A stretch of 64,000 bases of DNA from Phoronis australis. Lineage: Eukaryota; Animalia; Phoronida. Made by a program: the position numbers and the translations under genes. Of this stretch, positions 1 through 61,130 are shown one piece after another; positions within the stretch are counted from its first letter, which is position 1, and each line of letters begins with the position of its first letter. Under the pieces are notes generated by a model. That model made no database searches, was not told where the DNA came from, and was given only the letters and a program-made list of their open reading frames with translations. The DNA is taken from assembly GCA_002633005.1 (NCBI GenBank), contig NMRA01000436.1, positions 321,891 to 385,890 of the forward strand, in the 5' to 3' direction.

Positions 1-870
1 GGATTTCCGGACAAAAAGTGGGAAATCTTGGTCCATGTCAACACGCAAAGAAGAAACGTTCGCCCAGCAGCGTTCTTTGTCAAACGGGAGACGTAACACA
101 GAAAAGTGCCCGACTGCGGATTTTTGTTTTTTAAATCGAATGGTAAATTGTAGGTGCCTAAAAAGCAAATGAAACGCCCCGTTTTTTCCTTTTAGTCGAA
201 CGAGTAAATAGGACCATGTCGCGAGTGAAATTACAATAGTAGATGATGAAATGTCTATTTTACGTGTGTTAATAATCGGGCCATTTTGATGGTGTGGCGG
301 GAAGGTGAGAAAAAATTAAGAAAATGGAAAAATCTACCATGATCGGGACCGTTGGCAAATACAATATACATTGTATTATGTCAGCAGCGCAAAGTATTGG
401 ATTGGATTCTTATCCAAGGTAAATAGGTGAATTTTTCATTTTTTAAATTTTAGTTCACGGGTATAGGTACATGTAAATACCACGGATAACATTCACTGCT
501 CAGAAATCGAATTACCAATAAGTATCTGGGCGACATGTAAGTATTGCAATAACTAATTATCATAGGAATAATTGCAAAGAGTAATAATATATGTATACGG
601 AGGTGATGTAACTACGCTCTGATAGAATATATTGGTCACGTGCGGATTTAACATTCCAGGTGTAGAGTTTTAGGGTCTACATGTACATGTAAGTTGAGAC
701 CAAAGCCCGATTTTGTGGTTCCCAATTTTCGTCTTAGACCTAATGCAGGTCTTAACTGATACAAATATTGGTATGAAAATCATATTTCATAAAATGAGTC
801 CGTTCTTAGTTTAAAGACCATGTGCATGTGCTAAAGAAATTATCACGTGACTGTGAGGCTACTGCTGACA

Positions 871-3800
871 ATGCTTGTTAGCCAACGGACCAATACTGTA
901 GCTGAGTTGGATGCCACGGGTAATTTTTACGAAAATTTCAGTTGTGTTTGCTCAAGGGAGTTTGCACGTCTGTTGAAATCATTATATTGTATACTAGAAA
1001 TTATGACCGTTGTTGAAGTTCTATACGATCGAAGTTATTTTTTGTGTTCTCTGTTGATTTCTTAGTTATGAAGACACCCAAGCAGAACAAGCTGCGTATT
1101 TACGAGTTGCCTGTCGGCCAAGGTGACGGTACAGTGATACAGTGCTCTGACGGTACGGTGACCCTAGTTGACCTCGGCTCATCAACGTCGACATCCAGAG
1201 GATACTGGGGTTTCAATCATATATCCAGCTTTATGACCAGAAGAAATATCAACGAAATTAAACACGTTTTCATAACGCATGGTGACCAAGACCATTTTAA
1301 CCTTATACCTGGCTTGATTAACTCCGTAAACCGCGGTAAAATGAAAATTTACTACTCAGACGTTTTTAATACTTTGGCAAACACGTTTCCAAGAATCTCT
1401 ACCAAACTCATTCGCAGGTGCACGGGGACTCGGTCATGCGAGTCTTTCCCGTTATGTCCTGGTGTTGAGATGCAAGTTGTTGCGTCACAGCTCGGCTCCT
1501 TGCCAAACGAGAAAGGGATTGTACTGCGCTTAAAGCACGGCGGCTTCACCATGTTGTTTGTGGGCGACGTCTCGGAGAAAGCGTCCTCCGATACCCTAAA
1601 GCGGTATCCGTCGGATATCAAGGCCGATGTCTATAAACTTGGACACCATGGGAGTAAACGTGCCAAGACAAACACCATCAGTTTTTTAAACACAGTTCAA
1701 CCGAAAATTGTAATTTCATCTGGAGACCCCTGGTATACCTATAAACACCCAAACTGCATATCATTAGAAACGGCTCTGGACTCGGGAAACATTTTAAGAA
1801 GTTCTGCATCAGGTTTTCGAATAAGAACCCAAACAGACTTCACGTGCGGCGATTCGTCTGGTCGGGCAAACATTGACGGTTTCGGAAAAGCACTGTACAC
1901 GCACGCCCCGACAGAAACTACGTTAAACCTTATAATTATAACTTACGACGCTGTGACGAAAATAACCAAAGTCAAACCTCTGCAAATGTCCACAGACTCG
2001 CATTCTTCTGCCAGCTCGAGAGGGCGTCGTAGTACCGACTCAGAAATTGCTGACGACTCGTCATTTGGTGGCAGTGAGTATAAAGGTTTTTTATCAAATT
2101 CTGAAACATGCCCCACTTAAGAATAAGCGCAAGGCAGCACTGTTTTGAAAGGGCAGTGTTGTCTCGCATTCAGTTTGTTCTAGCATTATAGACTTGTGAA
2201 CATCTCGAAAACGAGGTCATTTGGTACGATTTTTTTATCAAACTAAGCTACTGTATAATCTTATTTTGTATACATATGCCAACCTGTCAGTTTGTGTCTT
2301 ATTTCTCTCATAATGACTTAAGTTACACCGGTTCAGGTTGTGGAAGTACGTTTACATGTCCAGCTGATTTAAATACAACTGTGAACTGAAAAAATGACCA
2401 GTAGAGAACCACTTGTCAGAAATTGTCTAACGCTTTTAGATGCTAGGAATGAGACTAAACGTGTGTAAGGTTTTTCTCGTGAACGTCTCATCTCTTTTTC
2501 TTCATACAGATGATTTTTGAACCTCCCATCTTTATTTCCAATACAGGTGATTTCCCAGACATCAGTTGGTGCTCCAACGAACAACACCCTAACTTACAAC
2601 CAGGCGAAAGTAGACCGCCTAGTAGAACTATGAACGAGGTGTGCAAACCCATTATACAACCGATAGGGCGAAGTGACGAAAGAGTTTACACGTAAGATAT
2701 TGGCAAAACGTGGTTCACAATTATCTCGAACGTAGACTCACAGTTTTTGTAGGCTCACACATGCATGCGCGTTCTCACTGACGTATTTTTTTTGCAATAT
2801 TTTGCATTTTCATATTAACAAGTAGGCGCATTATGCCGCCATCCCTGTCCGTCCGTCCACCCGTTTGGGAGACCCCGGGATCGAATCCTGGCATTACTGG
2901 CTGACAATCTATTGTCGCACAAAGCTGTCTCCTACACCTCCGAGCTCCATCTTACTCGTGAATGTACAGGTACGCAACGGAATGAATGAAAACCTGGGTA
3001 TCATGCAAAAACCATTTCTGGGGCTGGGCTAGTTCAAAACAAACGACGCCATCTCATTTTGGGCGGACTTGATGTAGTCTGCGCAACTCGATTATACTTT
3101 TTTGATTACGTGTTTGACATCACCCTCTCCATCTGCAATACCGCTTGAAGAACAGTATTAAAATTTGGAGATGTGTTGGTGATGAGATGACCGACGCTGA
3201 CGTTGATTTTCGGACGTGTATAACTACTCTGTCAGCCCGTATTGGAAATTTTATTTTTGTTTGCGTTCACGGCTTTATTTCCTTTGCCCTATGCAATAAA
3301 TGTGTTCCTATGGAGATGGCAACAGTTGACGGCCAGTTTCAGACAATCCAACAACAGCTGTGCTCCCTAGTGGCATTACGTTTGCCCTCTTCAGTGTTTC
3401 CTAATGCTTTTTCAAGAAATTTGGCAAAAAATTATATTATAAAGGTGACAGCTCCTTCCCTTTTGTGATAAATTTGACGTATTCTGCACCAACTAGTGGC
3501 CGTTTGAATTATTTGTTTACTCTCTTTTTGTCGCCACCTTCTGCACTTGCCCAACCACGCGAAGGATGATTATGAAAATTGGCAGGTGTGTTCTTACTGA
3601 CAAGAGTATGACTGACGTGGATTTTCAAACGGGTCCAACTACTGTAGTGCCCCACAATGATAGTTTTCGCATCTATGCCTCTATCTTCTTAGTCCCTTAC
3701 GAGATAGTTTTGAAATTTTGCAAATGAATTCCTATGAACTAGAAATTAACACCCCTAGAGGCGAACCGTTTGCGGTTCGGTCGTGGGCGCATTGCAACGC

Positions 3801-6800
3801 TTCGCGTTGCACTTGTATAATGTTATTGTTATTGATTGCGTTTATTGTTGGCGCCAATGTTATTTTTTTGTCATGTTATCGTTATTATCATAATGATTGA
3901 TGATGCTGATGTTACTACTGCTGTTGGATAAAACTTTTTACAGCTGTCTATGGACCATGGAATGTAAATAACATAAATGTCATGGAATGTATTGTCATCT
4001 GCGTGAATCAACTTGCTTACAAAATGCGGAATGAAATGTGTTATTTTCTCGTTGCTTGGCGACATCTAATTTTGCATAGACAGATCGCCGGTTTTCAAGT
4101 AGGCCTACTATTCCGGGTCAGTCACGATCAACGTCATTGCCAAGTTGAAAAATAAATGAGACACCATAGACAGAGGCAATCTGTGTATGTAAGGGCGATA
4201 ACCAGTCTTATTCAAAATCCGCCAACTGCAGTATTTGCCATGTTGTCTATGAGCACCGACAGAGGGCGCAGAAACTAGTCAGTCATAAATCCTCAGTAAA
4301 AGCCAAGAGACTCTGCAAAGTCGGAAATTTTTTGTAGTCAGTTCCAGGAGTGTGATTTTCGGACATCTAATTAATCACCGAGATAATACATGTAGACGGT
4401 GTCCATTATCTAACCAAAGTGCATTTTTCAGTTTGTATTACTACCGCTTTGACGACGTGGTGTTTGGGAATGGAAACAACTCGTGTGATTCAGTGGAAGA
4501 CGATGACATCGCAAATATGTGTGCTAGCAGGGTGATGGCGTTTCGGCTTGCATTTCGACTAAAGCGTTTGGCGTTTTTTGTCGCACAACAGTGGAATGGT
4601 AATACTTGTACTTTACTTTAGAAAAACAAAAAGGTACTGAAGTGTTTTAGTTTCTAAAAAGCAATCAGTTACCACTTGATTGCTTGAAACTTCGAAACGA
4701 AGAAACCTTCAAATATTTAGGGCAAGGTTGAATCTTTCCTTTAAAGGTCTTAAAAACTGAGATTTAATTTTAACGCTTTAGACGAGTAGAGTCAAAACCT
4801 CTGTCTGTAACTACTAATCAATCCAATTTAAGTATAAAGTGTTTCAGAGCAATGATACGGAATTTGGTTCTCGAATACATGNNNNNNNNNNNNNNNNNNN
4901 NNNNNNNNNNNNNNNNNNNNNNNNNNNNNNNNNNNNNNNNNNNNNNNNNNNNNNNNNNNNNNNNNNNNNNNNNNNNNNNNNNNNNNNNNNNNNNNNNNNN
5001 NNNNNNNNNNNNNNNNNNNNNNNNNNNNNNNNNNNNNNNNNNNNNNNNNNNNNNNNNNNNNNNNNNNNNNNNNNNNNNNNNNNNNNNNNNNNNNNNNNNN
5101 NNNNNNNNNNNNNNNNNNNNNNNNNNNNNNNNNNNNNNNNNNNNNNNNNNNNNNNNNNNNNNNNNNNNNNNNNNNNNNNNNNNNNNNNNNNNNNNNNNNN
5201 NNNNNNNNNNNNNNNNNNNNNNNNNNNNNNNNNNNNNNNNNNNNNNNNNNNNNNNNNNNNNNNNNNNNNNNNNNNNNNNNNNNNNNNNNNNNNNNNNNNN
5301 NNNNNNNNNNNNNNNNNNNNNNNNNNNNNNNNNNNNNNNNNNNNNNNNNNNNNNNNNNNNNNNNNNTCCTTGAAAATACATGTGACCTGGAGTTTGAGCA
5401 GCAGAGTTGCGCACCCTGGTGGTTGAGTCATATTGTTCTTATATAGGTTTTCCACGGTGAGGACGCTTAGAATTACGTGACTTTGGTTAGATTTTTCTCG
5501 CCGCGAGACGGCTGACACACAGTAATTACAGGTGGCACTTGAACAGCAATAAACAACTGACAGTCTATAGTTACAGACGTATGTGTTAGTAAGGACTGAC
5601 GTAATGTTTTTTCAGGCACGCTGCACGTTAAGGTGAAAGAGGCATGGCGAGAAAAGACAGGGTTGGAGAAGATCCGTGACAAAAGTTTACATTATGAAGG
5701 AAGGTAAGAAGGCGGAAACCTTTTGCGAAGTTTGCCGCAGCTGCTTGTGTAAAATAATTCCTGTTCTTGTAGTAAAGCATGGTTCTGATCAATCTTCCAC
5801 GAGAAATTGGCAAAATTTCCTCGGATTACTTCGATGTCCTGTGGCAAGTTATTGATTTTCCACTGTATGACGTTGAAGTAAATGAGCTGTAAACTCATTG
5901 TATTAAGAGATAGACCATCGTCATCTCTATTGATAAGTATACGGGCCCGCTTCATTTCATTACAGAGCTCTGAGAATAGGACTAGTAGGTCGTCTGGTCA
6001 CAAACACTGACGTGTCACTGCTCTCTCATCTGGCTCAATGTGCAGGTTTTGACTACGTCACGATCAATAACCACAAAGAGCTGGAACTATGTGGTCTTCT
6101 TCAGGAAAACGTTATTGGTGAATTTGTCTCATTTTACAAGACAAGACTCTATGCAATTGCCGTACCGCCGTATTTGGAAGAAGAGTATGGTTATCCTGAG
6201 GCACTGGTGAACGAAACGAGGAAAACTAGACTATTCGACGGCATTGATGTGACCGAGAAAGTGTCAGACCACATAACTATTGGCGATATTGCACTGCCTG
6301 GAAAACGATTCTTCAGAATTGACCATCTTTTGGTTGAATGTCTCGAAGAGGTCAAAGGTGAAATGAGTGACGCTAAAATAATAAACCCCGTTTATAGAAC
6401 GCTGCTGTTTAATAACCGCGACATCGATACAAGGCACAGCGAAGAAAAGCACCGTTTCCACGCCGGTCAGGCCGCTGAGCTAAAACTGGCCGTTGGTTCT
6501 AAATTTACCCTGTTTGACTTGGCTAAAGTTGTGGTGCGCTCATGTTTGAAGACCTTCAACTTCGAGCAGCTGGTTCTAGGATTAGGAGCTCACCAACATC
6601 ACCTGTACCTTGACTTGCGACCCCAAGAAATAGGAGAAAGTCGACGATTGGTGGTGTGGGAAGCAGAAAATACCAAATGGTTCAATGAACTGCAACCTTT
6701 TGCAAGGGCAATAAACCACGGTAAAGTACATGCATTGCGTCTGTTCCCCATGGCCTGAAAACTCTAAAAATCATCTTTAAATCTCATGTGCTAATAATTC

Positions 6801-9800
6801 TTCCAAACAAATTTGTGTTAAAATTTCAACGTTCTCAAAGCAATCTACATATGCCTGCATAAATTATTTTTCACCCTCTAGAACCTATATTTGTTCCGAA
6901 TTGTGTAAATTTGCCCGCACGTAGTGACCTGCCAGTTTCAAAGATTTATTGGTTACTGTGTCCAGTTTTACAGAGTTATAAAGACGCTTGTTTTCTCATT
7001 GCCGCTTGTTGTATTCATTGCAGGAGGGCCTCTCATTGATCCTGTCAGTCTGGCGCATGCGTGTAGGGAGCCAACACATGGTGAAAAGTTTCCTTTTATC
7101 TCTGAACGATCCAGCTCTGAAAGGTATGATCCTCGTGGCAGCCACTTTATAAAAAAAAGATTGGCCCTACTTGTTTTTAATTTCGTCTTAACTTCTTCTT
7201 TGACCTTTGAAACCAGTCATATGTACCATAATACGTGAACATTGGCAATATGATATGCATCAAATCGTATTTAATTTCTCCTATCCCAGATTATGATTGC
7301 TAGTTACTGTCTTACAGTTCTTGCATTTGACAACACAACATTTGTTTTTCGGGACTACAGTGCAAGTAATGTCTTACTGAACGAATGTGAATGCATGCAC
7401 TTGCGCAAATACACGCACACATGCACACGCGCGCACGTGGCAAACACGCACTTGTATGTGTATGGTTTGTATATTTGTGTGTTTGTATTTATGTATGTAT
7501 GTGCACGTATATACGGATGTAAGTATGCATGTACATGTATTGTTTTATATGTGTATGTATAAGTGTAGATATAGATGACTATAAAGATGTATATGTAACA
7601 CTCGCTATTTTCAGGTCCTGTCTTAACGAGGATGCTGGTTTTTGTCAAGAAACCAAGAAAATTAGACAGCAGGCGGTCAAAGATTTCATGAAGAAACTTA
7701 AGCGACTTGTCCGAGTTTCATCTCAAGTTCGTAGCTCGATTGAAACGTGCTTTGTCACGAGTTGTGGATGCGGAGTTGGCTTTGGTAAGACCAATAGCAT
7801 GGTCGGGTCACTACCATGTCATTAGACCCGAAATCATGCAAGTAGGTGACTGTCAAGGTATGGGAGAAAATTATAATTCATGTTCACCCTACCGTGAACT
7901 TATTACTTTTAAATTCAATTTTGTGGTTCAGCCTTAGGTACCTGAAATATACGAACTTAATGACAGCCACTACATTAAGACAATTGACACCTGTTTAGCG
8001 CTTGGATAGGGTTATAGATGGAGTTTTGACATAGCGCCCTTTCGTACCAGACGTTTGACTTGTTTGCATCCTGCAGCAGTAAAACAATCACCAGGCATTC
8101 TAGTTGTAACTGTACGGAATCTGAAGGTAAGATCAACCCCGCGTTACTATACATGTTTGTCTACTTGTTACTTTAGGTTCTGCGTGGGAAAAAAAGATAA
8201 GGTCGTGCATGGAATTCATTTCCGATTACATCGAATCATCCACTGTACCATTCGCCAAGCAAGACAAAGCTGCGTTCTTCAACACCGCTAACGTAAACTC
8301 TAGTGTTCATTCTCTTGCTTGTGACAATGGGCTTTGTCTGGAAAATAACCAGCTATATTCTTTGCTCAGTAAGTGTCAGATTAGGAAACAAAATCGTTAA
8401 GCGAATTGCTAATCAATGTTGGTTAGAAGAAAAGCTGCTCAGACTTGCTCATTTCGGAATTAACTTTTAATGCCCTACCGGAGTGTGTGAGATAGTTTAA
8501 ATCTAGTGGCATCACTTGGAGATAAACATTCTAATCCACCCACTATTATTCATTGTGTTACTTGTAACTCTTGTAAACGACCTACATGTACCAGTATACC
8601 TTCAAAAATAAAGAATAGATATGTATTTATGCTGCTGGTACTATCTAATATACACCGGATAAGAACATTGGACATATTGAAAAAGCTATTCAGGCTGTCT
8701 TGGTCGCAGTTTCAAATTGATGTTCCTAAAACAATTTGACGAGAAATTCTTAAAAGACTAAATGTATGCATAAAACATACAGTCAGTAAAGCTCCAAACA
8801 GATGTTCAATTTAATTTGTATCTGTCTGGGGACAAACTTGAAGACGTTCACCATGAAAAAATACTACGGGCCACATTTGATTAGAGTTTGACTTGGTCTA
8901 AACAGATACCTTATAGTCTGCCAAAGATTTGACAAAACTGGGTCTTTTGTCCAGAACTGAATGTTATATATTCATTGAATGACAGTTAATAGTTTACTGT
9001 CCATGTATTACGCCACACTTCACAAACTCTAGTACTAAATGTATGCTCTGTCTTTTCTTCTGCTCTTGCGGCAAAAATGGAAAAACTACAGAAATAGGCT
9101 GCCAGATTTTTCTGAGATTGTCCATTTGACACACCCTCTAATCAAATGTTTGCAAATCTGCTATGGCTACAAATGCACAAGTTGTATCATTTTTGGCATA
9201 CAAATATGTTTTCAAATATCGACGTCATGAAATGCAAATCATATATCTCATGCGGTTATTGTCACAATGTTAGAACTAGGTATGCTTTATCTGATAATTG
9301 TGTGATGTCTCGTGTTATACCTATAGTATTTAGCAAACATTTTATTTTTGAGTCTGTCAGAAAATGGAGCATTTCACCACAGAACATCAACTGCATGTTT
9401 TAGTACTTTCAAAAAAATCTTTTATGTATTCTTTAACTACACTAGCCTCTTTACTCTCTCATTTGTTTATAGCCAGACATTTTTTATGTTCAATTCTTAA
9501 TAATAACCATTTTAACTTGAATTTATTTAATTTATTCACACGTTTATATTTCCTGTAGTTGTTTATTCTTTTGTTTTCAAAGGACCGTGTGGTAAATAAG
9601 TTTTTAAACGCGTTGTATCCTGTATAAAACCTATAAGTAAAGTTACAAGTATCTAATCTAATCTAATCTAATTTCACATCGAAATTGTGGTAGCGTTTCT
9701 AAAAATCTGATAGGATTGAACACCTTGAAGCACGTGACCCACTTTTTGATTGCTATCATTTTACACGATTCTAATTGCATACTGGCCGTGTTTTTTTCCT

Positions 9801-12139
9801 TTCAAGCGCAAGAATTCAGTATTTATTGAAGCGAGACCATTCTGGCCCACGGTTCTATTGAGAATCACCTACAAATGAAAAGTATGCACGGGGCTACTAT
9901 CTTCTCGTTTCAGAGCAACTGTTGATCACAACTTACAAGCCCGTTGATGGTGAAAGCATTGAAGAGATGGTCTTCAGCAGTCGAGATAACCCCAACCCGA
10001 CCATCAGTTTGCTTGAACAGTTCATGGCCATGAATGCGAAAGGTCACGTGAATGTCTATATAGAAAAGCGCGGAGACATTTCTGCATTGAGAAAGCCTAT
10101 AAAGGTACAACTATTTCGTATTTAATAGAGAAAATGGTACACAAACATCGTGGATGGTTGTATTTATGTAACTACGACCATGGCAATTGTCGCCCATTTT
10201 GCTGCGATTTGTGTGCAGTTGCCAGGTGAATGACCATGGGTTAAAGCGAAATTTTCAAGTTCACCTTCGAAAAACGCGTTTTGGATCACGGCTGGATGGA
10301 ATACGCTTTATGTAGTTATTTTTTGGATGGGCAGCCTTTTGAAGTTATTTTTGGATGAGAAAGGCTTGTTGAAATTAATGTTGGATCTCACAGACTTGTT
10401 GAAATTATTGATGGATGGGACAGACTTGTTGAAGTTATTGTTGGATGGGATAGACTTGTTGAAGTTATTGTTGGATGTAGTACACGTCTTGAAATAATGC
10501 TGGATTGGACAGACCTGTTTAAGTTATTGCTGGATGGGATAGGCTTGTTGAAGTTATTGTTGCATGAGACAGACTTGTTGAAGTTATTGTTGGATGGGAT
10601 AGGCTTGTTAAATATATTGTTGCATGGAGTACACTTCTTGAAATATTGCTGGATGGGACAGACACTTTTTGAAGTTATTGTTGGATGGGATAGACTTGTT
10701 AAATATATTGTTGCATGGAGTACACTTCTTGAAATATTGCTGTATGGGACAGACACTTTTTGAAGTTATTGTTGGATGGGATAGACTTGTTGAAGTTATT
10801 GTTGGATAGGACAGACTTGTTGAAGTTTTTGTTCGATGAGACAGACTTGTTGAAGTTTTTGTTCGATGAGACAGACTTGTTGAAGGTATTGTTGGATGAG
10901 ACAGACTTGTTGAAGTTATTGTTGGATGAGACAGACTTGTTGAAGTTATTGTTGGATGAGACAGACTTGTTCAAGTTATCAGGTTTGACTACAGCTTAAC
11001 ACAATCCAATCCAATGTGCTTTTGAGAATTTTATTAAACATCTCCAAATTTTCTTGTTGTCCATGACCAAAGATAATTACGTCACCACTTAAATACCCTT
11101 AAGATATGCTGCAACTTTAATCGAATGTTATTTAGCTAGCAATGAGCTTGACTGCATCCGCGAAATTTCCGGAGGCGATTCCTCACAATGGCTAATCCTA
11201 GAAATGTGTCGCCTATATCATTTTAAAAAGCTAATGTAAGATGACCCTGCGAACGTTTTTTATCTGAACAAATCGCCCGGGGCCTCACTTCAGTTTTCGT
11301 TTGGTGAGACAGACAACACAAGTTATATATTCCGACATGGACGTACCACTACCTATCCAAAACCAGATTGACCTATTTGAATAGTGACCGGTGGTCCCGC
11401 TAAACTCGCCACATCAATATGAGCGAACTCAATGGTGTGGGTGATTTTTTCGTTTAAGGACCGCCTATAACTGTTTTTTATGCTCGTAACAATCCTGGAA
11501 ATATCCTTTAAGGCTAAGTAAGTGTTGTATTATTTCACTTGCAAACAGGTTTGAAGTGTCTTGTAATTTTCAAGATATGGTGCCTTTGACTGGGTTGTTT
11601 ATACAAATCACGTACTCACATACTTCCACGAAGCATAACCACCTTTATATGAACACCGATTGTGCAAGTTCGTTAGCAATGATTGTAATTATCCGATCTC
11701 ATCCTTTAGTAACCAAATTTCATGGGATTGGCCCTATATCAATGATTTTCTCTGCACTGAGTGTGCTGGTAATGTTTTTACAATAGATTTGCAAACTACT
11801 GCCCACGGGTGTATTGCCTGTAACGGCGGTATCTTGGAAATCAAATTCTTTGTACATGTGTTTCAGGCTTTGCTGGTGTTCAACAAGCAAGTGAGTAAAG
11901 TAACTATCCACGTTTCTTCGGATGTTCATACCGGTAAAGTTGAGGATGAATTAGCCAGGAAGACGCAGTTTTGGGCTTCTGGGGAGTGCCCCAAGAGAAC
12001 ACGTGTCGCAGTGGCTCCTTTTAACGTTGTCGAAATTCCACACCACAGAATACGACGTAGTATTGAATTATCTCACGTCAGGAATTTGAGAATGACGGAC
12101 ATTCACAACTGGGAGATGGCATGGCTTTCTAGAAATTAA
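871..12139 (+). CDS. Multi-exon multidomain protein: ComEC-like MBL + Hedgehog-N-like (Hedge) + peptidase M15-like + Cys-rich / ADP-ribosyl cyclase-like C-terminus
   Basis: Manual splicing; all junctions are GT-AG and phase-compatible. Exons: (871-919, tentative), 1066-2073, 2547-2691, 4432-4598, 5616-5703, 5966-6720, 7024-7123, 7615-7784, 8177-8368, 9914-10104, 11867-12139 (stop TAA). Exons from 1066 on sum to 3089 nt (2 nt + 1029 codons) with no internal stop. The true start is uncertain. Confidence 0.72.
1066..2073 (+). CDS. Exon encoding ComEC/Rec2-like metallo-beta-lactamase-fold hydrolase domain
   Basis: Motifs PVGQGD, LVDLG, ITHGDQDH, LFVGD, KLGHHGS and ISSG...YKHP occur in ComEC-MBL order. 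Acceptor ttgatttcttag|TT at 1065/1066; donor GGCA|gtgagt at 2073/2074. Unspliced, the ORF runs to a stop at 2120. Confidence 0.88.
2547..2691 (+). CDS. Exon: start of Hedgehog-N-like domain
   Basis: Acceptor tccaatacag|GT, donor AC|gtaaga. LQPGESRPPSRTMNEVCKPIIQPIGRSDERVYT parallels Hh [33 protein letters not shown]. Confidence 0.75.
2830..3817 (+). mobile_element. Helentron/DINE-1-like non-autonomous repeat in intron, possibly with a SINE-like piece near 2870
   Basis: GTCC microsatellite near the 5' end (ctgtccgtccgtcc), degenerate internal repeats (aaattggcag...gacgttgattttc...ccctag), 3' hairpin tgcaacgc-ttc-gcgttgca followed by cttgt. Similar units recur at 48690-49920. Confidence 0.45.
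4432..4598 (+). CDS. Exon: middle of Hedgehog-N-like domain
   Basis: Acceptor tttttcag|T, donor G|gtaata. ASRVMAFRLAFRLKRLAFFVAQQWNG parallels Hh [26 protein letters not shown]. Confidence 0.8.
4882..5366. other. Assembly gap (N run) inside an intron
   Basis: Run of n characters. Confidence 0.99.
5616..5703 (+). CDS. Exon: Hedgehog-N-like core (SLHYEGR)
   Basis: Acceptor ttttttcag|GC, donor AG|gtaaga. GTLHVKVKEAWREKTGLEKIRDKSLHYEGR parallels Hh [26 protein letters not shown]. Confidence 0.88.
5966..6720 (+). CDS. Exon: end of Hedge domain plus second peptidase M15A-like domain
   Basis: LLSHLAQCAGFDYV parallels Hh MLARLAVEAGFDWV. RIDHLLVECLEEV...VYRT...N...FHAGQAAEL...GLG...HLYLDLR follows the M15A pattern (LxxLxxxR..SGYR...N...HxxGxAxD...GxG...HxDxR). 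Acceptor cattacag|A, donor G|gtaaag. Confidence 0.85.
7024..12139 (+). CDS. Five 3' exons (7024-7123, 7615-7784, 8177-8368, 9914-10104, 11867-12139) encoding the Cys-rich / ARC-like C-terminal region
   Basis: Clean polypyrimidine-AG acceptors and GT donors; phases 1-2-1-1-0 chain without stops to TAA at 12137-12139. Confidence 0.78.
7385..7600. repeat. Low-complexity CA/TA/TG dinucleotide-rich tract
   Basis: cacacatgcacacgcgcgcacg...tgtatgtatgtg; intronic. Confidence 0.7.
10290..10980. repeat. 30-bp minisatellite (~22 units), intronic
   Basis: Consensus TTGTTGGATGAGACAGACTTGTTGAAGTTA repeated head-to-tail, most homogeneous at the 3' end. Confidence 0.95.
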
Positions 12140-13642
12140 CTTAACATTAACTTGTTAATAACTAGATGTAACTGGCTTGTGTTATTTTTGAAGAATACTT
12201 AAAACAAATTATTGAGAATGCCGTGTAACCCCATGCAACATCTGCATTTGTAAGATGATCAAAACACTGCTTTAAAGTACGTATAGTTCTTGTCTCCAGT
12301 GTTCTATTGTGCGAATGAGGACCTCCGACACCTTAAAGGATGCATTGGTGTCGTTGAACTGTTTTGACTCAGTGACTTGGTATTAGAAGTGGATAGTCAT
12401 GATTTGCTCCTATAGATGGCGGGGGCTTCGTTACATGTTATTTTGATGAAAACAAATAAGTTGTACAAAACGAAAACAAAACGATTATTTAGAAAACCGT
12501 AACATATGACTTCATCTGTTGAACACTAAAACCAAGCAAAGTTTGGTCATATTAGTGATCTTGCATTGTTTCTTTGAGTGTATCTTTATTTTGTTGCTAA
12601 ATGTTCCCGAAAAAGCAAGGGTATATGGCAGGCACGTACATGTAGCCAGCATTGCACGGGGTGGCTCGAATTTCTAGAACTACGGGTTTGATAGTTTTCG
12701 GTAAGGCCATCGACGCAGCTTTATTTGGAGGAAGGGAAATCTGTACACACAACGATGGCTGTCAGCTCTATGTTCCTGAGCTAAGACGGAATTTGTAATA
12801 CCAGAAATGAGAATGCCGTGACAGTTGGTCGCAAAGAACGGGAGCCGAATTCGGATGCAATGTGGCCCAGGAAGAGAACTTTCTGGCGTTATCCCCTGCC
12901 ATGTTTCTCACAACAAGCGTTATTAAAAGAATGATTACACTTCATTGCATACTCGGGAGAATGACTTGAATTTTTTATCTGGTTGTATTTTGCGTGTTAC
13001 TCAAGTTGCTTACATCGGTGGAAATGGGAACAGCTATTCTGAAGGTTCAGTATTTTGAAAGTTCATTACTCCGAAAATATCTAAAGTTTCTGGACTCTGC
13101 TGTAATTACTATTAATTTACATACAAAATGAACGATAGTTCGGTAATTAGATGGACGGAGTGGTGTACATGTACCAACTCCCGTATTTCGTGCGCATGCG
13201 AAATTGACCGAATGTCTTACGAATACGGAAAAATGAGTACGAACTTGCATTTTTAAAAGCATATGAAATAGGAATATTGATGAATGGGGCCATCCGGATT
13301 ACACAGCGAAACGCAAATCTGATTGTATTTACCTGCAATGGCGAGAACATCCATCAGGCCCATTCAGTGCTACCGCGTGTTAAGGGAGAGCGTGAAAGCC
13401 CATTCATGGGGCTAAGAGTTCGAAACTAGAAGAACATTTCGTGAATACTTTCATTTATTAATAAATATTATCTTCTTGTCTCAAGTGACAAAATATAACG
13501 TATTCATTAAAAAGTCTCATATTTTAATTTGAGCAATTTCTGTAAAAATCCATTGATTACATATGTCGAGTAGTAGAGCAAGCACCGCATTGTCGAATCA
13601 CAGATTGTGACAACCATTTTCCATTGGTATCTTATGTATCAA

Positions 13643-13866
13643 CCGCCCACATTACAGTGTGAAACTATTGGCTGCAATACCGCCCACACTACAGTGTGAA
13701 ACTCTTGGCTGCAATACCGCCACACGACAGTGTGAAACCCTTGGCTGCAATACCTCCCACACTACAGGGTGAAACTCTTTGCTGCAATACCGCCCACACT
13801 ATAGCTAGAGTGAAACCCTCGGCTACAATACCACCCACACGACAGTGTGAAACCCTTGGCTGCAAT
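13643..13866. repeat. ~37-bp minisatellite (6 units)
   Basis: CCGCCCACACTACAGTGTGAAACTCTTGGCTGCAATA units in tandem with no unique spacers. Confidence 0.92.
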
Positions 13867-16800
13867 ATGGTTTAGCCCGAGATGCTAAAGTTGATTATTT
13901 TGTTAAAATAAAATTACAAATGTCTATGCGTGCGAAACATACAGTTGGGTATTTGCGCAGTGTTTCCAAGAGTCTAGAATATAATTACTTTTATAAGACT
14001 GTAATCAGTGAAGAGTAGTCTAGAATTACTCATATCTGTTTGTAAATTCCAAAGGCCGCAACATTTGGCGATAAATACATGTATTATAAATCTGGAATGC
14101 GTTAAAATAAATTTACATGTATTTTGCATAAAGTAACTTGTCGTCGACGGGTAAGAAAAATAACTGGCTTTGACCTGATTAACATAAAATGAGGATGTCA
14201 TGCCACTACTTGCCCAAAGAATTAATTAATTTGAATTCATAGACAAAACGCGCAGAGAGTGGCGTAGATGAAATACCATCCCACGAGACATTATTCCGCG
14301 TATAGACCATGACCGAATTACGTTTATCCCATACGCTTCAAACTCTTAGTTCTTTTTATTTTTCGGCCAATTTTTAAAATACTTCACCAGATTGCTCACG
14401 TGATGATAATGGTCAACATTGCAGTTACCGAGGAATCGGCGCGTCAGTTGCAGATGAATATTTAGCAAATAAAACTAAGGCAGAAATGTTACACAATTAA
14501 ATATTACCAGAAGTTATGTTTGGGACCTGATGGCACGTTGGCTGTTATTTCTACTGCTGCAATTTTATTACGCTGTTATTTCTACTGCTGCAATTTTACT
14601 ACTATTTTGGGAACGTTTGATGATCGAACCGGCTAAGGACATAAAGTAGACATTGATCTGCCATGTCTGAGGGCATTGTTAAAGTACTCCCGGGAGTGCT
14701 GCGCGGAAAACAATACCGCATGACCGTATCGCACTCAACTTATTGAACGCGTGCGGTACAAAGAATGTCTCCACTCACGTCGTGAAGATCTGAAAACAAC
14801 GGCTCTGCCTAAACAAAGAACATTCGATTATCCTTTCTATAATATGACTAATCCCCCAGTCAATAAACAAGCCGTTGGAAGTCATTACATGTACATGTAC
14901 GGAATTTACGTACTAGTCGTTGAAATTCTGCATGTGTCTGCTCAAATCGATCATTCATTGATTCAACGTAATTGTTTTAATCCCTTTTCACTTGGGTTTC
15001 CATCCACTTTGAATTGTGAAAGACGCTTGCACCTCTACATATAGGACATTTATTGACGCTCATTGTTCTGAAATTATTGATCTCACTCTGGTCACCAACC
15101 CTCTTGCTTAAGTCCGTTGTCAGACCTTATTTGAAGAATCAGACTGGGGTAGAATGAAATTAGAATAACAACAAATGAAATATGTGAACTTTGTATAATC
15201 TCTTCATTCATCATGACTGGGTTAGAGGATAGTGTATATTATTGGCAGGTAAGACTTTGACGTAGTTCCCTGCATACATGTAGATCATATGGCAATGCGC
15301 AGTGTTCGCCTTGGAAACATGGCCATATTACAGGTTTTCAGAATTCTGAGGCTGTATTCAAGACTTGCCGGCAGACGCTGGATGAACATTTCTTGTGGCC
15401 ATCGACTAAACTGGTTTGCATTTTAACGCTAATTTTCGGAAGGTGAGCAAATTAAGATGTCTAATGACTAACGGTGTAGCCAGGAGACCCGGATAAGTTG
15501 AACGGTTATGGGTGATATTTCAAGATTTGCGAGTCAACGCATACGACATCTTTTATTGATTAAAAAAATTTTTCACCCGTTCGAACTCAGAGTCAACTGC
15601 GATCAAAAAAACGAAGTTTTCATACGTGTTGATTGAGAAACTATATATCAAGTGCTCCATCTCAACTCCACGTGGTGTGCACCTTGTTAAAGTAACTTGA
15701 GATCACCCTTTACTAAACAATTTGGACATGGGTTACACCGATAATGTGTTCATGACTGAGTGTTGAGTAGTGGTGACATAGATAACTTGTAATTGTTGTT
15801 AAAAATCTTCCAACCTTCTATCTAAATATAAACTTCTGTGGCCCAACTTTTGGTAAAAGAGTCCTTCAACCAATGATTTTGTGAAAAAATTGCTTTGGCC
15901 ACTGGCCGTTAAAAATTATCTTGCCTTGTTTCTTGCTAGAAATGGTCGCAGGATTGGGTCAGATCTGAGAGTTGGTTACATGGGCAAATGGAGCTCACGC
16001 CTTGACATGGAATTTGAAGATCTTGTCTTGTGGAAATAAAGAACCGTCAATTCTTTCCAAGAACAGAAAGCAAATTAAAACTTTGACTTAAGAGCAATTT
16101 GAAACAAATTTCATAACCGGTAAATGGTGTGTATCAAAGCAGCATTTATGTCAACCGAAAGACGCATAAGGTTATGCACATTTGTGACCCTACAAAACTG
16201 ACCAAATGTGGATAACTTCGGAACAGGTTGTCTCATCCATGACTGATCGGACTCACATGTAATTTTCAGACACTATGCCTGTTGCACTGTTCCAAATACG
16301 TAGTTAGGAATTGTTTCACTTTTGCCTGGAAAAATCCAAAAGTTGCATAAAATGAAAATGAAATGAAAGTTAAGAAAATATTAACACATAATACACAGAC
16401 TAGTCGACAACATCTTTCCTGCCTGAAAACAAACACTCCTAATTTGTATGTCAACAACATGGTAAAACACATTCAAATACTTCAATAAAAAACACTTTTA
16501 TTGAACTCAGTCTGAAACAAAGCTCCGATACCCCACATTTATAGGCTCAACTCTCCTAAGCTCAGAAATTTTGATTTTCAACATCAAAGCTACATGTACA
16601 AGTACCCCAATGATTTATATAAGTTCCATGATTTATAAAGTATACTGGAATCAGGTTCTCACAAACTGCTCTGCACCAAAATAAGAGTAAAAACAAAGGT
16701 TGAAGAAGAGTTCATATCTTACATCAGCAAATGTACATGTACGAACGTCGACCAGCGTGCGTGGCGGTGCCTAGTACTAGCTGTGTCACCAAAAGCGGCA

Positions 16801-43321: not shown

Positions 43322-45208
43322 GGGGCCATCGTGTGTGCAGCGAACATTACCTGGTGGAAATAAGACGTATGAGAATAACATTCCGACGGAGTTTTCTCTT
43401 AAAATTAACGTCTCTAGCATATCCACGTCGAAAGCTAGAAAAGTTAAGCAACCCAAGAACTCTCAACTTGTCTGAAACCGGAGGAGATTTCGAAATCAAC
43501 GCCGATAGCCCCAATACTGAACATGACGACAGTCGTGCCCTCGGTCACTGATCATAGCTACGCTGTGTTTACAAACGAGAGAGAGGACTTGCTTGGTATT
43601 GTAAAGCAAAAAAATGAAACATGGTTTTTAGTTTGAAAATCACTCCAAATGCACATACTATCCAGCCTGACCACAAGCTATCCCATGAGCCTTCGCGCAG
43701 GAAGTAACTCGCATATGCGCAATGCGTAGTTCGTTTGCGCTGCAAATACCCTGTTACTCTGGTTTCAATGAGATTTTATGAATAACAGTGAAATGCTTTC
43801 ATCTCACAGACGAAGTAACTATTGTGCATAAGCTAGTGACTCCAAACTACCAATATCCAATTGTAGCCGGTGTGTTCCAAAGGGCCTGTGAAGTTGCTCT
43901 AATTGTCCAAACACAACAGGACATGTCTCATTGCTCATGTTTTCCAAGATGTCCATACGGCCACAAGATAAAATTTCTATATGCCTGCTGTCTGTTAGAC
44001 ACATTCTGATCGTCACTGGTATCAGTGCCATCATACCATTTCGTTGCAGTTTGTCGATAGCAAGTACAACTTCATCCAGGCAAAAGATTTGGAAATCCTG
44101 AAAATATTGATAAAATATATTTTCATGAGGTTTTATCACTATTTCAAATTTGACAAGGAGCTGAATAATTACATTTGTCGCTTGTTAATGATTTATAAGC
44201 AACAACTGGTTTTTTTTTTTAAAATTCAAGTAACTACTCAATTTCCGTGATCGAAAGGCATGCGGGCAATTTGGCATGTGCCTGAAATCCGGGCATTGTT
44301 TGTGCATAGGTACACCACCTCGTGCATCTAACAACCGAAGTGTCGTTCATTGTTTCTGGTGAAAGCATATCTGTTACACCCAAGTCCAAAATTTAAGATC
44401 TGTTCGAAGTAGTGAACCTTCGGAATAGTGAACCATCAGAGTAGTGAACCTCTGGAATAGTGGGCTGTTCCCATTTCCAGCGATGCAAGCAAGTTAACTA
44501 ACATGCAAAGAACAAGATCTAAATATCCAAGTCATTCTCCGATTAAATATTTCCGTCCGAGTATGAGGATCACTCATCTAAGCACGCCCTGTTTGAAATT
44601 TTGGCAGGGGGTAACGCTGGAACGTTTTCTTTCTGGACTGCATTACATCCGAATTTGGGTCCCTCTTTTTGCAAGCAACCGTCACGGCATCCCCGTTTCT
44701 GTTATTACGAATTCTTTCTGATCTTGGGAACATAGACTTGAGAGTCGTTGTTGTATATTTAGACCCCCCCTCCAGTTAAGCTTCGTCAAGGGCCTTACCG
44801 AAAACTCTACAGTGTCGACGCTTGCAAAATACAAGTATCAGCCTTACTGTATGTTCGAAGCACACCCGCGTAATGTTGGCTACGCCTTAGGCATGATAAA
44901 AATGTGGCGACACGTTGCTTTGGAGAAGCTAACGTGCCTGTGGAAAAATTTCACGTTTTTAACACCAGACAGCGCTCAAAACAGGCGAACATGCTTTATG
45001 ACGATTTGCTCTTGTGAAATGTCGGAAGGCTTACTTTCCCTTTTGAAATGTATATACATGTATTTGTAGATTCACGTAGATGTATGTACCATGGTAATTT
45101 GATATCGTCAAATAAACTTAAAACTCGATATTCTAATGATTGTTTGATTTTATTTATTAAGTGCCATAACAGTTTGCACGATGTGCCCTAAACTTGTTTT
45201 CATTTCAG

Positions 45209-48200
45209 GAGGAGGTTCCGCACTTGGTATTTGCCGTCACTCTGGCATATTTTGGTGTTACGTTCCTTCTAACGCGAATGGCCAGAAGTGTGTTGGTCCA
45301 ATGGACTAGCAAGGAAGTACACCCGTTTGCAAACGATATTTTGTCGACGTTTCAAGTTATCGCCTGCTCACTTGAAAACAGATCCACAAAACAAACTTAC
45401 GGTGACCTTGCTTTCACTTTTCAACTTTTCGTGGTAGGCATGTTACATTCGTTCACTTTAACTGGTTGTGGAAACCCGTGCGGTAACATGGTGCGGATGT
45501 TAACAAGAAAGGACAGTTTGGCCGTTGGATGTCTTAAAATGGCGCTACAGCTTCTAGGAGGAGTTATGGCTTGGTTCTACGCTAAACGGATCTGGAGCCT
45601 TGGCTTATCTGAGCTTCATGCGCAACGTTATGTCGAAAAAGAATGCCTGACAGACTTAAATACAGACGTTGGATCAGGGTGTTTGCTAGAGTTTGGAGCC
45701 GCTCTTTGTCTGTTGGTAATATCACGTGATGGCAGGTTACCACTTGTTGTTCAAATGGCCTTGGACTCCCTTATAACTGTGTCAGGTAAAACTGCACTTG
45801 CTTCAGATATAACAGTAAAAATACAGCTTCCACTCAGTCTTGAAGTGGTTAGCTTTTGATTAATTGTCTTTTAGGCTAATTGTGAAATAAGATGGTCGCG
45901 TGTTTTATTACAATAACCATGATTGTGAAAAAACAAGCACCACTGACATTGCCGTACAGTAATGCCCCGACGGCATGAATACACATCACTACTTCGTTGG
46001 TTAACTGCGAATTTTCACTATCACGAAACTATTTAAAATGTCGGACTCTGGTGTAATGTATGTGTTTCTGTACGCAGAAACGCACATTCTTCGGTTAGTA
46101 GATGCATCGATGTACCTGCCGAATACAACTCCCGGGTACTCATCACCAGAAATTCGTGAACTAGGCCATCCGCGAGGTGGCGATCGTCGTGTGAGTGTTT
46201 ATTATTAACTATTTTATAGTTGCAATGGTCTGAAATGTGTTTTAATATAGCCTGATTACGTCTTCTACACTTTCCCACTCAACGAATTCATTTCTGCACG
46301 TATGTACTATTAAACTTGCAACAAAAGCACTGAGCTGTCTGACCTCAGTCCTCAGGCTTAAAATAAGTAGTCAGTGTCTTTAGGTCAGCATAATGGCATT
46401 ATGCTGTAAAACAAATTAATTTCCATTCAGACTAACAAAATGCCGATGTGGTTGATTTATTCTATAAATCTGGAGATTCTGCTGCTGATACGTTGCTTTT
46501 ATTTTTAGGTTGGCTGGACCTTTTGCTTACATAATTCGCCAGAGAGACTGCAGTTGGGAACCAGAGTGCCTTTAACACCAGACTTTGTACTTCTGTACAC
46601 CACGCTATTGCTCCCTCTCAAAATCAAGAGGCGGTCAAAAAGAGCACTTTTTGCAGTATTGTACTGACCATTGGTAGATGATTCCAATCTTAGTTAGGGT
46701 AAAGTTGGTATTATCCCAACACTATATTCATTGCATGCAGGGCTCGACATAATTAAGTGTGTACATGCTCGAAAATACGATTTAAAAAGTTAAGTATTAA
46801 TGGGAACTTGACCTCACCCGTACAATCTAACATGTACGGAGCGAAAGTTCAGCATTTTTTTAGGTCGTCACCTTTTGTGAGTCCAAATCCGGGAACACGA
46901 GTGCAGAATTTGCGGTCACTCGTATTTTGGAGCAGGCATTTTCGCCCGTGTCGAGGGCTGGCATGAATATGTTTGTTTTATTTTTTTATTTTTGAAGTGC
47001 ATCAGATGTCATCTATGACACCGTGCAAAAGTTAAAGTTGCCAGTGCTGATATATTTTACTCTAGATTTTATTTTTTTACTTGATCTCATGATTATTTTC
47101 ACATGTGTTGAAATTCAGTAATTCCTCGTGGTAGAAATTTTTAACATTTGTATTTTTTGTATTCATTTATGATGTTCATTTCGTGTAAGTGATGTTGCTG
47201 TTTTCACAACAATCTCTTATTGCATGCAAACATGTCATATGAATTGGCTAAATCTTCCATTCTGGTCAGTTACTATTTAAATCTGAACACTGCTATTTAA
47301 AGCAGCATTGGTGGTATTTTGTATGCTTAGCGTTATAAAAAATAAAGTTTTGAACAAAAATTACTCATTGTTTCTGGCTATTATATGAACTCCTGTTTCT
47401 GTTTCTGGAAATTCCATTCCATATTATTTACTTGTACATTTACCGGCGCAATCTGTTTTGAAACCAAACTTTCCACTGCATAAGTGGATTTAGGCTTCCC
47501 TTTCGCACACGATAAAAATGGCATTGACATGTAGTTTTCAGTTCCTGAAATCCTTAGCCATTTCTGATACCTACTACTGATTCAGGAATGATAAAATTTT
47601 GTTCCATATTATTTATCTGTACACTCACCAGCACAGTCTGTTTTGAAACCAAACGCAGGGGCGGATCCAGGTTTTTTTTAAAAAAGGGGGCCAAGTCAAC
47701 AATTCGAAAATTTACATAACTAAAAGCAAGGGAAAAAGGGATCCGAAATCCTTTGACTCCCCTGGATCCGCCTATCAAACCGTGACGGTACGCTGCATAG
47801 ATGGATATAGGGGGGTCCGAGGGGGCCCAGGGCTTTCTCATTCTGCACACGATAAAAAATAGCGCCGACCTTTCGTTTTCAGGGATCTCACGAGGGTTTG
47901 TCCTACAAAAATTGACGTCACGCCCCTCGCAAGTCTATTATGAAGGTTTATCCTTCAGAAATTGAGGTCGGGGCCCCCATCATCTTAATTCCATGGATCC
48001 GTCTATGGGTATGAGTTCTTTTTTAATAAATGTGATACCTTCAACACAGCATAAATTAAAGACAGCAATATAATGTTAAAAAGAACTAGTACAACCTTAA
48101 CCTAGCTGCGTCTCATGAAGTGCTCTGTGCAATAATTTCAGAATTCATTTTTTTAGCAAAATACATGACCGACTACTTCTTGTTGCACTCTGGGAATTAA

Positions 48201-59818: not shown

Positions 59819-61130
59819 TACCATGCGTCTCCTTAGTGTTTAAATCATAGTGATCATAGCACTTGAAGTTTGGACTGCCAGTATTGCCTTTTGTGAATAT
59901 TTGGTAGAGTATAAATTTGTACGTTGAACAAAATAATTAATTTTCTCGTGCCACACTGGATATTTTTGCCTTTGTGTGCAACTTAAGCAAGTTGTTTCTG
60001 AATTAACAAAAAGCAAGATTGTGTTAGGAGGCAAAAACGTAATTCAGCTCAATTTGTCCGATTTTTTATCTTTGTTCAAATAGAAACCTGATTTGTCTGT
60101 GTTATGGCATTACCTGTAACCTCATGGTATGCGAAAAAAATGCTTAGAAAAATCTAAACAACAAATAATTATGTCAAGCTCTTCTTTCGGGCTGTTGAAT
60201 AACGTGATAAAGATGTTCTGCCAAAGGTTAAAACATATTAAACCCACATATAGTGCCATCTTTAAAAAAATGTCTAATTTTGTTTGTTGAGATTCTGTAC
60301 ATGGTAAAATAGTCTGTGACTGATTTAACTATTATCCTTCATTATCATTATGGATCAATGGGTTTCACTGTCTACTTCTTCGGTGTGTTAAGTCACTGTC
60401 ACAAACTTGAATTATTCTACACAAAGTGTCTAATATTGGAAAATTTGATTTGATTGATGTTCATTTGTGGTGCTAAGGATGTATGAAATGGCCTTTTCTT
60501 ATCATTTGAATAGGCTGAGAACAGCTTACCAGCATGAGCCATTCTTGGGATGAGGGCCCCATTTGACCTGAATGGATTTCTGCTTGCACAATCGTTGTTT
60601 ACCTATCATGACAGAGTGAATTTCAAGTTCTTCATTGTGGTTGTATGTGGCTTTATTAAAACGATGCACTGCCTTTTAAGTTAGTGAGAGGAGGCAGTGT
60701 TCCCGTTTTCTTTACTCGAGGTCATGGGTACGAGTCCCACCAGGTCACACTGCTAAACCCTTGAGCCAGGTTTCTAGCTACTCAGCTCGGTTTTAACCAT
60801 ATATTAATAAAGCATAATAATATTTCCAGGTGATCAGTGCAATGGGCCCACATGCGAGGCCTGCGCACGTCTGGTACAACGTGTATCAGACCGCCTGCAA
60901 TTATTTTTTTTATATTTAAGTTAGTGTATGTTACTGATACTGTAGGCAGTGAGGCAATAATCACTTATGGGGGTCTTGTTTTTTTTGCTTTTTGAGAACC
61001 AGCTATGACACCTGTTATTCAGTGGAGAAAGCTGGTTCTCAAAATTCAGGACCCCTGTGGCTAATACAAGCATCGACAAACAGCTTATTGCATCATTGTG
61101 TTAAATAAAATAATGTTCATTTGCCTACAG

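Follow-up and report, generated by a model that had tools for sequence, protein, structure and literature searches.

A gene of the phoronid Phoronis australis joins a metallo-β-lactamase (MBL) domain of the ComEC type to a core predicted to consist of a Hedgehog N-terminal (Hh-N) fold, a peptidase M15 fold and a fold resembling ADP-ribosyl cyclase (ARC) and CD38. The gene lies in a stretch of 64,000 nucleotides of spliced animal DNA (GenBank assembly GCA_002633005.1, contig NMRA01000436.1, positions 321,891 to 385,890 of the forward strand), here called the window, which has a GC content of about 41% and a single gap of 485 bases at 4882-5366; all positions are those of the window. Transcripts join the two parts in one reading frame, and this RNA-confirmed architecture is new within an ancient and apparently undescribed family. 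Rather than an effector with several enzymes, the product appears to be a single enzyme on a pseudo-enzyme scaffold, the MBL alone looking catalytically intact.

Three stranded RNA runs from one study that carry the same species label (X2, X3 and X4; 18-19% of each was used) and an older contig set that may be RNA (X1) were aligned to positions 1-13000. A preliminary description, made from the DNA sequence, had placed a splice donor at 2073, 47 nt before the end of the stop codon at 2120, and had matched it in phase to an acceptor at 2547 from which a chain of nine exons continues. Both sites are located as described and the joined frame is open. The GT..AG junction between them is crossed by 17, 23 and 25 reads with 13, 17 and 19 distinct starts in X2, X3 and X4, respectively, which is comparable to the depth of 16, 24 and 31 reads at position 2034. 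A 2,935-nt contig of X1 (record 2) also crosses the junction; it begins at 1506 within the MBL exon and reaches 12424 through the downstream exons. Each of the nine introns has GT-AG ends and read support in all three raw runs (Table 1). Depth is zero in all four data sets over 2080-2493 (6 of 6 bins), which for the sampled RNA excludes the first exon near 2276-2336 that had been considered as a separate start of the Hedgehog part. The loose read ends listed at 2547 all consist of MBL-exon sequence. The fused form is the sole form seen in the sampled RNA, with neither a 358-aa stand-alone MBL nor an alternative first exon.

The preliminary description was mistaken about the 5' end. The start at 871 is unused: depth over 700-1044 is zero in all four data sets (5 of 5 bins), and the reads enter at 1066 from one upstream exon end that is common to all four (17, 3 and 13 reads and one contig). 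Two short words of this exon end, searched on both strands of the window, had no match, and the true N-terminus therefore lies outside the window. The preliminary description had estimated approximately 1,040 aa; counted from the Met at 1068, the spliced exons read through 1,028 aa without a stop, and the complete protein is longer. In the upstream exon the final ten codons encode polar residues without a stop and may form the end of a leader region or of another domain; one contig includes 124 bases of this exon. The acceptor region at 2480-2553 is a 38-bp tandem duplication with a second AG about 38 bases upstream, and the reads use only 2547. The MBL exon and the core are alike in GC3 (0.50 vs 0.46). 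Among the 40 listed of 198 sequence differences, 25 are coding, with synonymous to nonsynonymous changes of 15 to 10, and of 3 to 2 in the MBL alone, which are too few for use.

The assignment of the MBL to the ComEC type is borne out. Lactamase_B of Pfam matches with E 7e-10, and the best sequence matches in PDB are ComEC C-terminal domains (CTDs), with E values from 4e-10 (9ic4) to 1e-3. The ComEC/Rec2 family TIGR00361 matches with E 1e-20, its 73 bits lying below the cut-off of 190. Searches with the MBL yielded mostly prokaryotic matches of 22-32% identity, and among proteins of 588-2,000 aa all of the 120 matches listed of 171 were prokaryotic and of the ComEC type, again at 22-32%. All ligand positions are kept (D20, H71, D73, D75, H76, N147, D167, H193/H194 and H227, numbered from Met 1068), and they include the combination that characterizes ComEC/Rec2, H-x-D-x-D-H (H71-D73-D75-H76) and the Asn of motif III (N147). 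The motif II Asp and the Asn of motif III set ComEC apart from CbpE, a phosphorylcholine esterase that is structurally the nearest relative of the ComEC CTD (PMC8579336). With the ComEC CTD (TIGR00361; PDB 9ic4, 9vc6, 30bt) the domain shares the MBL signature, GQGD, H-x-D-x-D-H, the motif III Asn, GD, HHGS and HP. It differs in its identity of only about 29%, in being encoded by a spliced animal gene, in its extra cysteines, and in a C-terminal extension common to a clade of stand-alone secreted proteins; moreover, the Competence (PF03772) membrane domain and the OB domain of ComEC are absent from the 1,028 aa encoded in the window. The ComEC CTD is a Mn-dependent phosphodiesterase/nuclease (PMC8579336). 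The window MBL, with its intact site, is probably an active phosphodiesterase, and to DNA as its putative substrate we assign about half the likelihood that we assign to activity.

The four best matches of the MBL (P0181-184, ENA/Logan records) stand alone; they start with a hydrophobic leader and have additional cysteines and the shared C-terminal extension. Five further stand-alone MBLs of 400-430 aa, encoded on short metagenome contigs (L007-L011), likewise have leaders, many cysteines and this extension. Together with the window MBL these nine proteins form one clade (SH-aLRT 99) apart from membrane ComEC, in a tree from which three rows were dropped (one long branch and two near-duplicates). 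Motifs are mixed within the clade, with H-x-D-x-D-H in the window protein and P0181-184 and the canonical H-x-H-x-D-H in L007-L011. Leaders, cysteines and UTR-like flanks suggest that the hosts of the stand-alone proteins are eukaryotic. When DNA was scanned with the MBL alignment, none of 176 pattern matches in metagenome contigs and none of 40 in viral contigs were confirmed, and prokaryote genomes yielded six loci, each matching a part of the domain at 27-43%. Four of these, the longest, were placed in the MBL tree and none fell inside the clade of the window protein, so that the scans point to no particular donor lineage. The clade may plausibly be of bacterial origin, with the donor not found in the scanned genomes. 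Another contig (L012:558-1059) encodes a member of the same clade that follows Cys-Cys-rich repeats in frame, another instance of this MBL fused to a further module; that contig ends within the domain.

The folds of the core were derived from an oyster homologue (P0130) that is 33% identical to the window protein over aa 344-1027 and was modelled with a 32-row alignment (pLDDT 82.6). In this model residues 202-379 match Sonic hedgehog Hh-N (Z 19.0, rmsd 2.2) and residues 391-578 match the Zn DD-peptidase 1lbu (Z 10.2, rmsd 2.4). Residues 637-882 match CD38 (5bnf, Z 11.1), an Aplysia-type cyclase (3zwm, Z 11.0) and CD157 (1isf, Z 10.1) in alignments of 187-204 residues with 10-13% identity, unrelated rows reaching a Z of at most 6. 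Foldseek supports both Hh-N and CD38, the latter with E 2.5e-4. The order Hh-N, M15, ARC/CD38-like that is thus predicted for the core agrees with the preliminary description. A profile of the core family finds Sonic hedgehog Hh-N with E 4e-24, and a search of PDB with the family sequences retrieved Hedgehog and not CD38; the ARC-like part is without a Pfam match. The M15 part aligns with the true M15_3 domain of P0169 with E 1e-12. A fold computed from the single sequence of exon 5966-6720 had a pLDDT of 39 and was discarded.

The zinc motif that defines Hedgehog and the DD-peptidases (LAS) consists of H-x6-D and H-x-H (PMC6027127). In the Hh-N part of the window protein H465 is retained, R472 replaces the Asp, which is present in 1 of 31 relatives, and the strand that should bear H-x-H lacks the His pair. 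The M15 part has F633, E640 and Y683 in place of the H, D and H of the intact M15 domain in P0169, and the second His is found in none of the 31 relatives. In the ARC-like part CLENNQL resembles TLEDTL, the signature of ADP-ribosyl cyclases (PMC6368836), and of 31 relatives 16 have Glu and 5 have Asp at the acidic position of CLE-N. When CD38 motifs are used to set the register, the helix in which the catalytic Glu226 of CD38 would fall (positions 930-947) contains no conserved acidic residue, the best candidate, K938, being Lys in 19, Gln in 6 and Glu in 2 of the 31. As far as this register, which is motif-based and not structural, can indicate, the catalytic site of the ARC-like part is probably broken too. 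The Hh-N, M15 and CD38-like domains of the core are thus likely to be inactive. The preliminary description had seen in the product a multi-module effector of bacterial-type folds; of this, the single spliced multi-domain protein stands, but the zinc motifs of Hh-N and M15 are broken and the ARC site is probably so.

The core is not new to Phoronis australis: its family is conserved in groups as far apart as a choanoflagellate, a sponge, molluscs, echinoderms and amphioxus. A word-based search with exon 5966-6720 against longer proteins gave no match, and a HMMER scan with the same exon gave 51 relatives at E<=0.001, which are collinear with window aa ~350-1028 at 25-35% identity. Molluscs contribute Haliotis, Sinanodonta, Octopus, Argonauta, Saccostrea, Batillaria, Ylistrum, Pecten, Pinctada, Solemya and Potamilus; the other members are from Lingula, Owenia, Asterias, Anneissia, Glandiceps, Saccoglossus, Branchiostoma, the sponge Oscarella and a craspedid choanoflagellate. 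All are uncharacterized. HH_signal was found in 25 of 31 scanned relatives, and Lactamase_B or Hint in none of them. A cysteine set, an NP-x-P motif and a W-E-x-x-W tail are conserved, and 22 of 26 relatives have a basic site, [KR]R[SA], ahead of the tail. One subfamily comprises forms of ~920-960 aa with an N-terminal M15-like domain, the other mollusc forms of ~1,400 aa in which the N-terminal region is long and Hh-N occurs twice. In a quick tree using 29 of 32 rows the window core clusters with Lingula and the mollusc long forms (SH-aLRT 99), a position suggestive of a lophotrochozoan host. The N-terminal modules vary: the sponge member has trypsin and PLAT, the choanoflagellate member C2 and M15_4. 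The Hedge-M15-ARC part is an ancient animal and choanoflagellate family and no fresh assembly of bacterial parts, which amends the preliminary view of a protein built from bacterial-type folds. One choanoflagellate-like relative (P0157, a Logan record) departs from the other members in that its first, N-terminal M15-like domain retains H, D and H-x-D; judged by these residues it may be an active wall peptidase.

By its sequence the protein resembles a ComEC-type phosphodiesterase joined to a Hog-less Hedge protein of the Hedgling kind, yet it falls outside Hedgehog, Hedgling and the M15 peptidases and, judged by the part encoded in the window, is no ComEC. With Hedgehog it shares the Hh-N fold, but here Hh-N is internal, M15 and the ARC-like part follow it instead of Hint/Hog, and H-x6-R replaces H-x6-D. 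Hedgling combines Hedge, vWA and cadherin, occurs in sponges, cnidarians and choanoflagellates, and has a Hog-less Hedge domain with an incomplete peptidase motif (PMC6027127, PMC2362128). The window protein is likewise a large mosaic in which the Hedge domain lacks Hog and the peptidase motif is incomplete; unlike Hedgling, it has no vWA, cadherin or transmembrane part, its Hedge domain is followed by M15 and the ARC-like part, and its family is present in bilaterians. Its likeness to peptidase M15A/Zn DD-carboxypeptidase (PF08291; 1lbu) is one of fold, seen in the homologue model, the zinc ligands being replaced. With ADP-ribosyl cyclase, CD38, CD157 and Tox-ARC it shares the order of the fold and its size but no Pfam or PDB sequence match, and the catalytic Glu is apparently absent. 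Closest are uncharacterized 'Hedgehog N-terminal signalling domain-containing proteins' of molluscs, Lingula, echinoderms and amphioxus (such as XP_067685171, KAL3857350 and XP_035662269), which are collinear with the core and share its cysteines and its tail, but none of which has a whole MBL.

No whole MBL was found in 76 core-family proteins and no core in 240 MBL matches. The expectation that the relatives would reveal a fused or a split architecture was answered in favor of the split one, with MBL kin that stand alone and have signal peptides, a Lingula protein being the probable exception. This protein, XP_013386061 (524 aa, no leader), starts exactly with the C-terminal extension of the MBL. 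Compared with window aa 251-310 it scores 62, which none of 20,000 shuffles reached, the best of 29 other family proteins scoring 38. Its aa 2-51 match a profile made without the window protein with E 8.5e-6 and 16.9 bits, the next best of 77 sequences having 0.9 bits; a profile from the four MBL tails alone was too weak (E 1.1 for the window protein, E 1.5 for Lingula). To judge from this alignment, it is highly probable that the fusion is shared with Lingula and that XP_013386061 is a 5'-truncated model. Because the Lingula homologue begins with the MBL tail, the fusion is probably older than Phoronis australis. Phase 1-1 exons are the symmetric class typical of shuffled extracellular modules. 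Since the MBL exon has this phase, exon shuffling is likely; the exon would have entered the gene from a stand-alone secreted MBL gene, probably before the split from Lingula.

Signal peptides of the relatives and the conserved cysteines make it very probable that the protein is secreted: a 10-residue hydropathy peak of at least 2.3 was found in 15 of the 21 core-family N-termini tested, and all four of P0181-184 have hydrophobic leaders. The 1,028 aa contain no transmembrane stretch and no KD19 window above 1.6. The two R-x-R-R sites of the preliminary description, RGRR (318-321) and RIRR (999-1002), are present, and we regard cleavage there by furin as reasonably likely. We tentatively prefer, short of calling it probable, a secreted and furin-cut proprotein in which an intact-site MBL phosphodiesterase, most likely a nuclease for extracellular DNA, is carried on an inactive Hh-N/M15/CD38-like core. 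Furin would cut the secreted proprotein and release the metal-dependent phosphodiesterase. Matrix glycans or bacterial wall material, to which folds of these kinds bind, would be the ligands of the core, which would serve as a binding or carrier scaffold and deliver an interchangeable enzyme at the N-terminus to mucus, matrix or the surfaces of microbes. A pseudo-enzyme scaffold would in this way co-secrete and position an exchangeable hydrolase.

Several observations weigh against this reading. The signal peptide of the window protein is unseen, the 5' exon being outside the window. R-x-R/K-R occurs in only 4 of 12 long-form linkers, and the Lingula linker is dibasic only. Activity, substrate and cleavage are all predicted, and the three core folds come from the model of a homologue and not from one of the window protein itself. 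The mixed motifs of the MBL clade and the identity of about 29% to ComEC make DNA as the substrate a guess. No other fused relative was found among the 240 MBL matches, and the Lingula link concerns about 50 residues that were chosen after the alignment had been seen and to which hhalign assigns a probability of only 6% (E 0.006).

The MBL of the same secreted gene may instead act on a phosphodiester or ester other than DNA, such as phosphocholine on microbial or parasite surfaces, in the manner of Pce/CbpE, or nucleotide messengers. CbpE, the structural neighbor of the ComEC CTD, is matched by the MBL, weakly (E 0.09), five members of the MBL clade have the canonical H-x-H-x-D-H, and the adjoining ARC-like fold is a nucleotide-binding fold. 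However, the window MBL has both ComEC-type substitutions (D73 and N147) and its matches to ComEC chains are eight orders of magnitude better than that to CbpE, and we consider a non-DNA substrate rather unlikely.

Unlikely, too, is that the core is the functional product, be it a Hedgehog-like ligand, a ligand sink or a matrix protein, and the MBL a furin-released passenger that acts separately. In support of such a role, animals and a choanoflagellate have conserved the core without the MBL, its Hh-N fold in the homologue model is close to that of Sonic hedgehog, a furin-type site lies between the two halves, and Drosophila Hh signals despite a broken zinc motif (PMC6027127). Yet none of the 31 relatives has Hint/Hog, hence there is no cholesterol modification, and Hh-N is embedded between other domains. 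The N-terminal partners in other lineages are hydrolase-type or lipid/surface-binding modules, which fits the role of a carrier.

A two-enzyme nucleotide ectoenzyme, in which the ARC-like domain would be an active, divergent NADase or cyclase, is improbable: the CD38 fold extends over about 200 residues in the homologue model and the CLE-N stretch resembles the cyclase signature, but no conserved acidic residue is found where Glu226 of CD38 would fall in the motif-based register. Two adjacent genes joined by rare read-through are hardly credible and already refuted for the sampled RNA, since the MBL frame does have its own stop and stand-alone relatives but the junction reads match the local depth, 2080-2493 is devoid of reads in three runs and a single contig spans both halves.

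The core is a further Hog-less Hedge family that ranges from a choanoflagellate to amphioxus and in which Hh-N adjoins its structural cousin M15 and a CD38-like fold. The RNA-proven fusion supplies this family with one domain of testable activity, nuclease versus phosphocholine esterase. More doubtful is the proposal that animals and choanoflagellates retain a third, overlooked Hedge lineage alongside Hedgehog and Hedgling. Its members would be secreted scaffolds made of three inactive bacterial-type enzyme folds (Hh-N, M15 and ARC) and would deliver exchangeable N-terminal hydrolases to microbial or matrix targets: trypsin in a sponge, an M15 peptidase in a choanoflagellate, and a ComEC-type nuclease in Phoronis australis and Lingula. 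If true, it would extend the logic of polymorphic effectors to animals, point to a use of the Hedge domain that faces microbes and predates signalling, and provide the first ComEC-type extracellular nuclease from an animal. Searches of the open-licence literature in PMC and bioRxiv revealed no account of the core family, the fusion or an animal ComEC-type MBL, and passages of PMC11377751, PMC9695228, PMC2362128, PMC3482391 and bioRxiv 2025.01.14.632903 contain none of the core family or the fusion.

Table 1. Exons, sites and splice junctions of the fused gene, with junction reads in X2/X3/X4
Feature	Position (strand)	Details	Evidence	Junction to next exon, reads
MBL exon, whole ComEC-type domain (aa 1-~305) and Ser-rich linker	1066..2073 (+)	1,008 nt, phase 1-1, internal	RNA, Lactamase_B	2073->2547, 17/23/25
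RGRR, furin-type R-x-R-R site	2019..2030 (+)	aa 318-321, between MBL and core; cleavage predicted	sequence	
Fusion intron	2074..2546 (+)	GT-AG, 473 nt, holds unused stop 2118-2120	junction reads, zero depth	
Linker and Hedgehog-N-like start exon	2547..2691 (+)		RNA, alignment	2691->4432, 8/21/10
Hedgehog-N-like exon	4432..4598 (+)	HH_signal E 0.18 on this piece alone	RNA	4598->5616, 12/15/14
Hedgehog-N-like exon	5616..5703 (+)	H465; Arg (R472) at zinc Asp position seven residues on	RNA	5703->5966, 9/10/18
Hh-N-like end and entire M15 DD-peptidase-fold domain exon	5966..6720 (+)	F633, E640, Y683 at zinc positions	RNA	6720->7024, 20/16/20
Cys-containing connector exon	7024..7123 (+)		RNA, alignment	7123->7615, 15/16/26
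Cys-rich helical exon	7615..7784 (+)	leads into ADP-ribosyl-cyclase-like domain	RNA, homologue model	7784->8177, 4/17/24
ARC/CD38-like exon	8177..8368 (+)		RNA, homologue model	8368->9914, 12/33/29
ARC/CD38-like exon	9914..10104 (+)		RNA, homologue model	10104->11867, 12/7/38
Last coding exon	11867..12139 (+)	ARC-like end, RIRR (12047-12058, aa 999-1002), 26-aa conserved tail, stop	RNA	

Elsewhere in the window, the ORF at 45170-45856 (+) resembles, by eye, an exon of an unorthodox aquaporin (AQP11/12) and that at 61065-61427 (+) an exon of DNA polymerase gamma; neither had a Pfam match at E 0.01. At 1743 one base is absent in 4 of 30 X4 reads (2 starts), within a T run, which is probably an artefact. 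The 3' UTR (12140-13000) is long and polymorphic and runs past 12424; X4 depth extends to 13000, and one contig diverges after 12531. Intronic interspersed repeats at 2827-2907 and 3300-3816 have many partial read matches with loose ends. The last intron contains a 30-bp minisatellite of 22 copies (10314-10979) that draws reads from elsewhere on both strands, and a 37-bp repeat of 6 copies (13642-13867) lies downstream of the gene.

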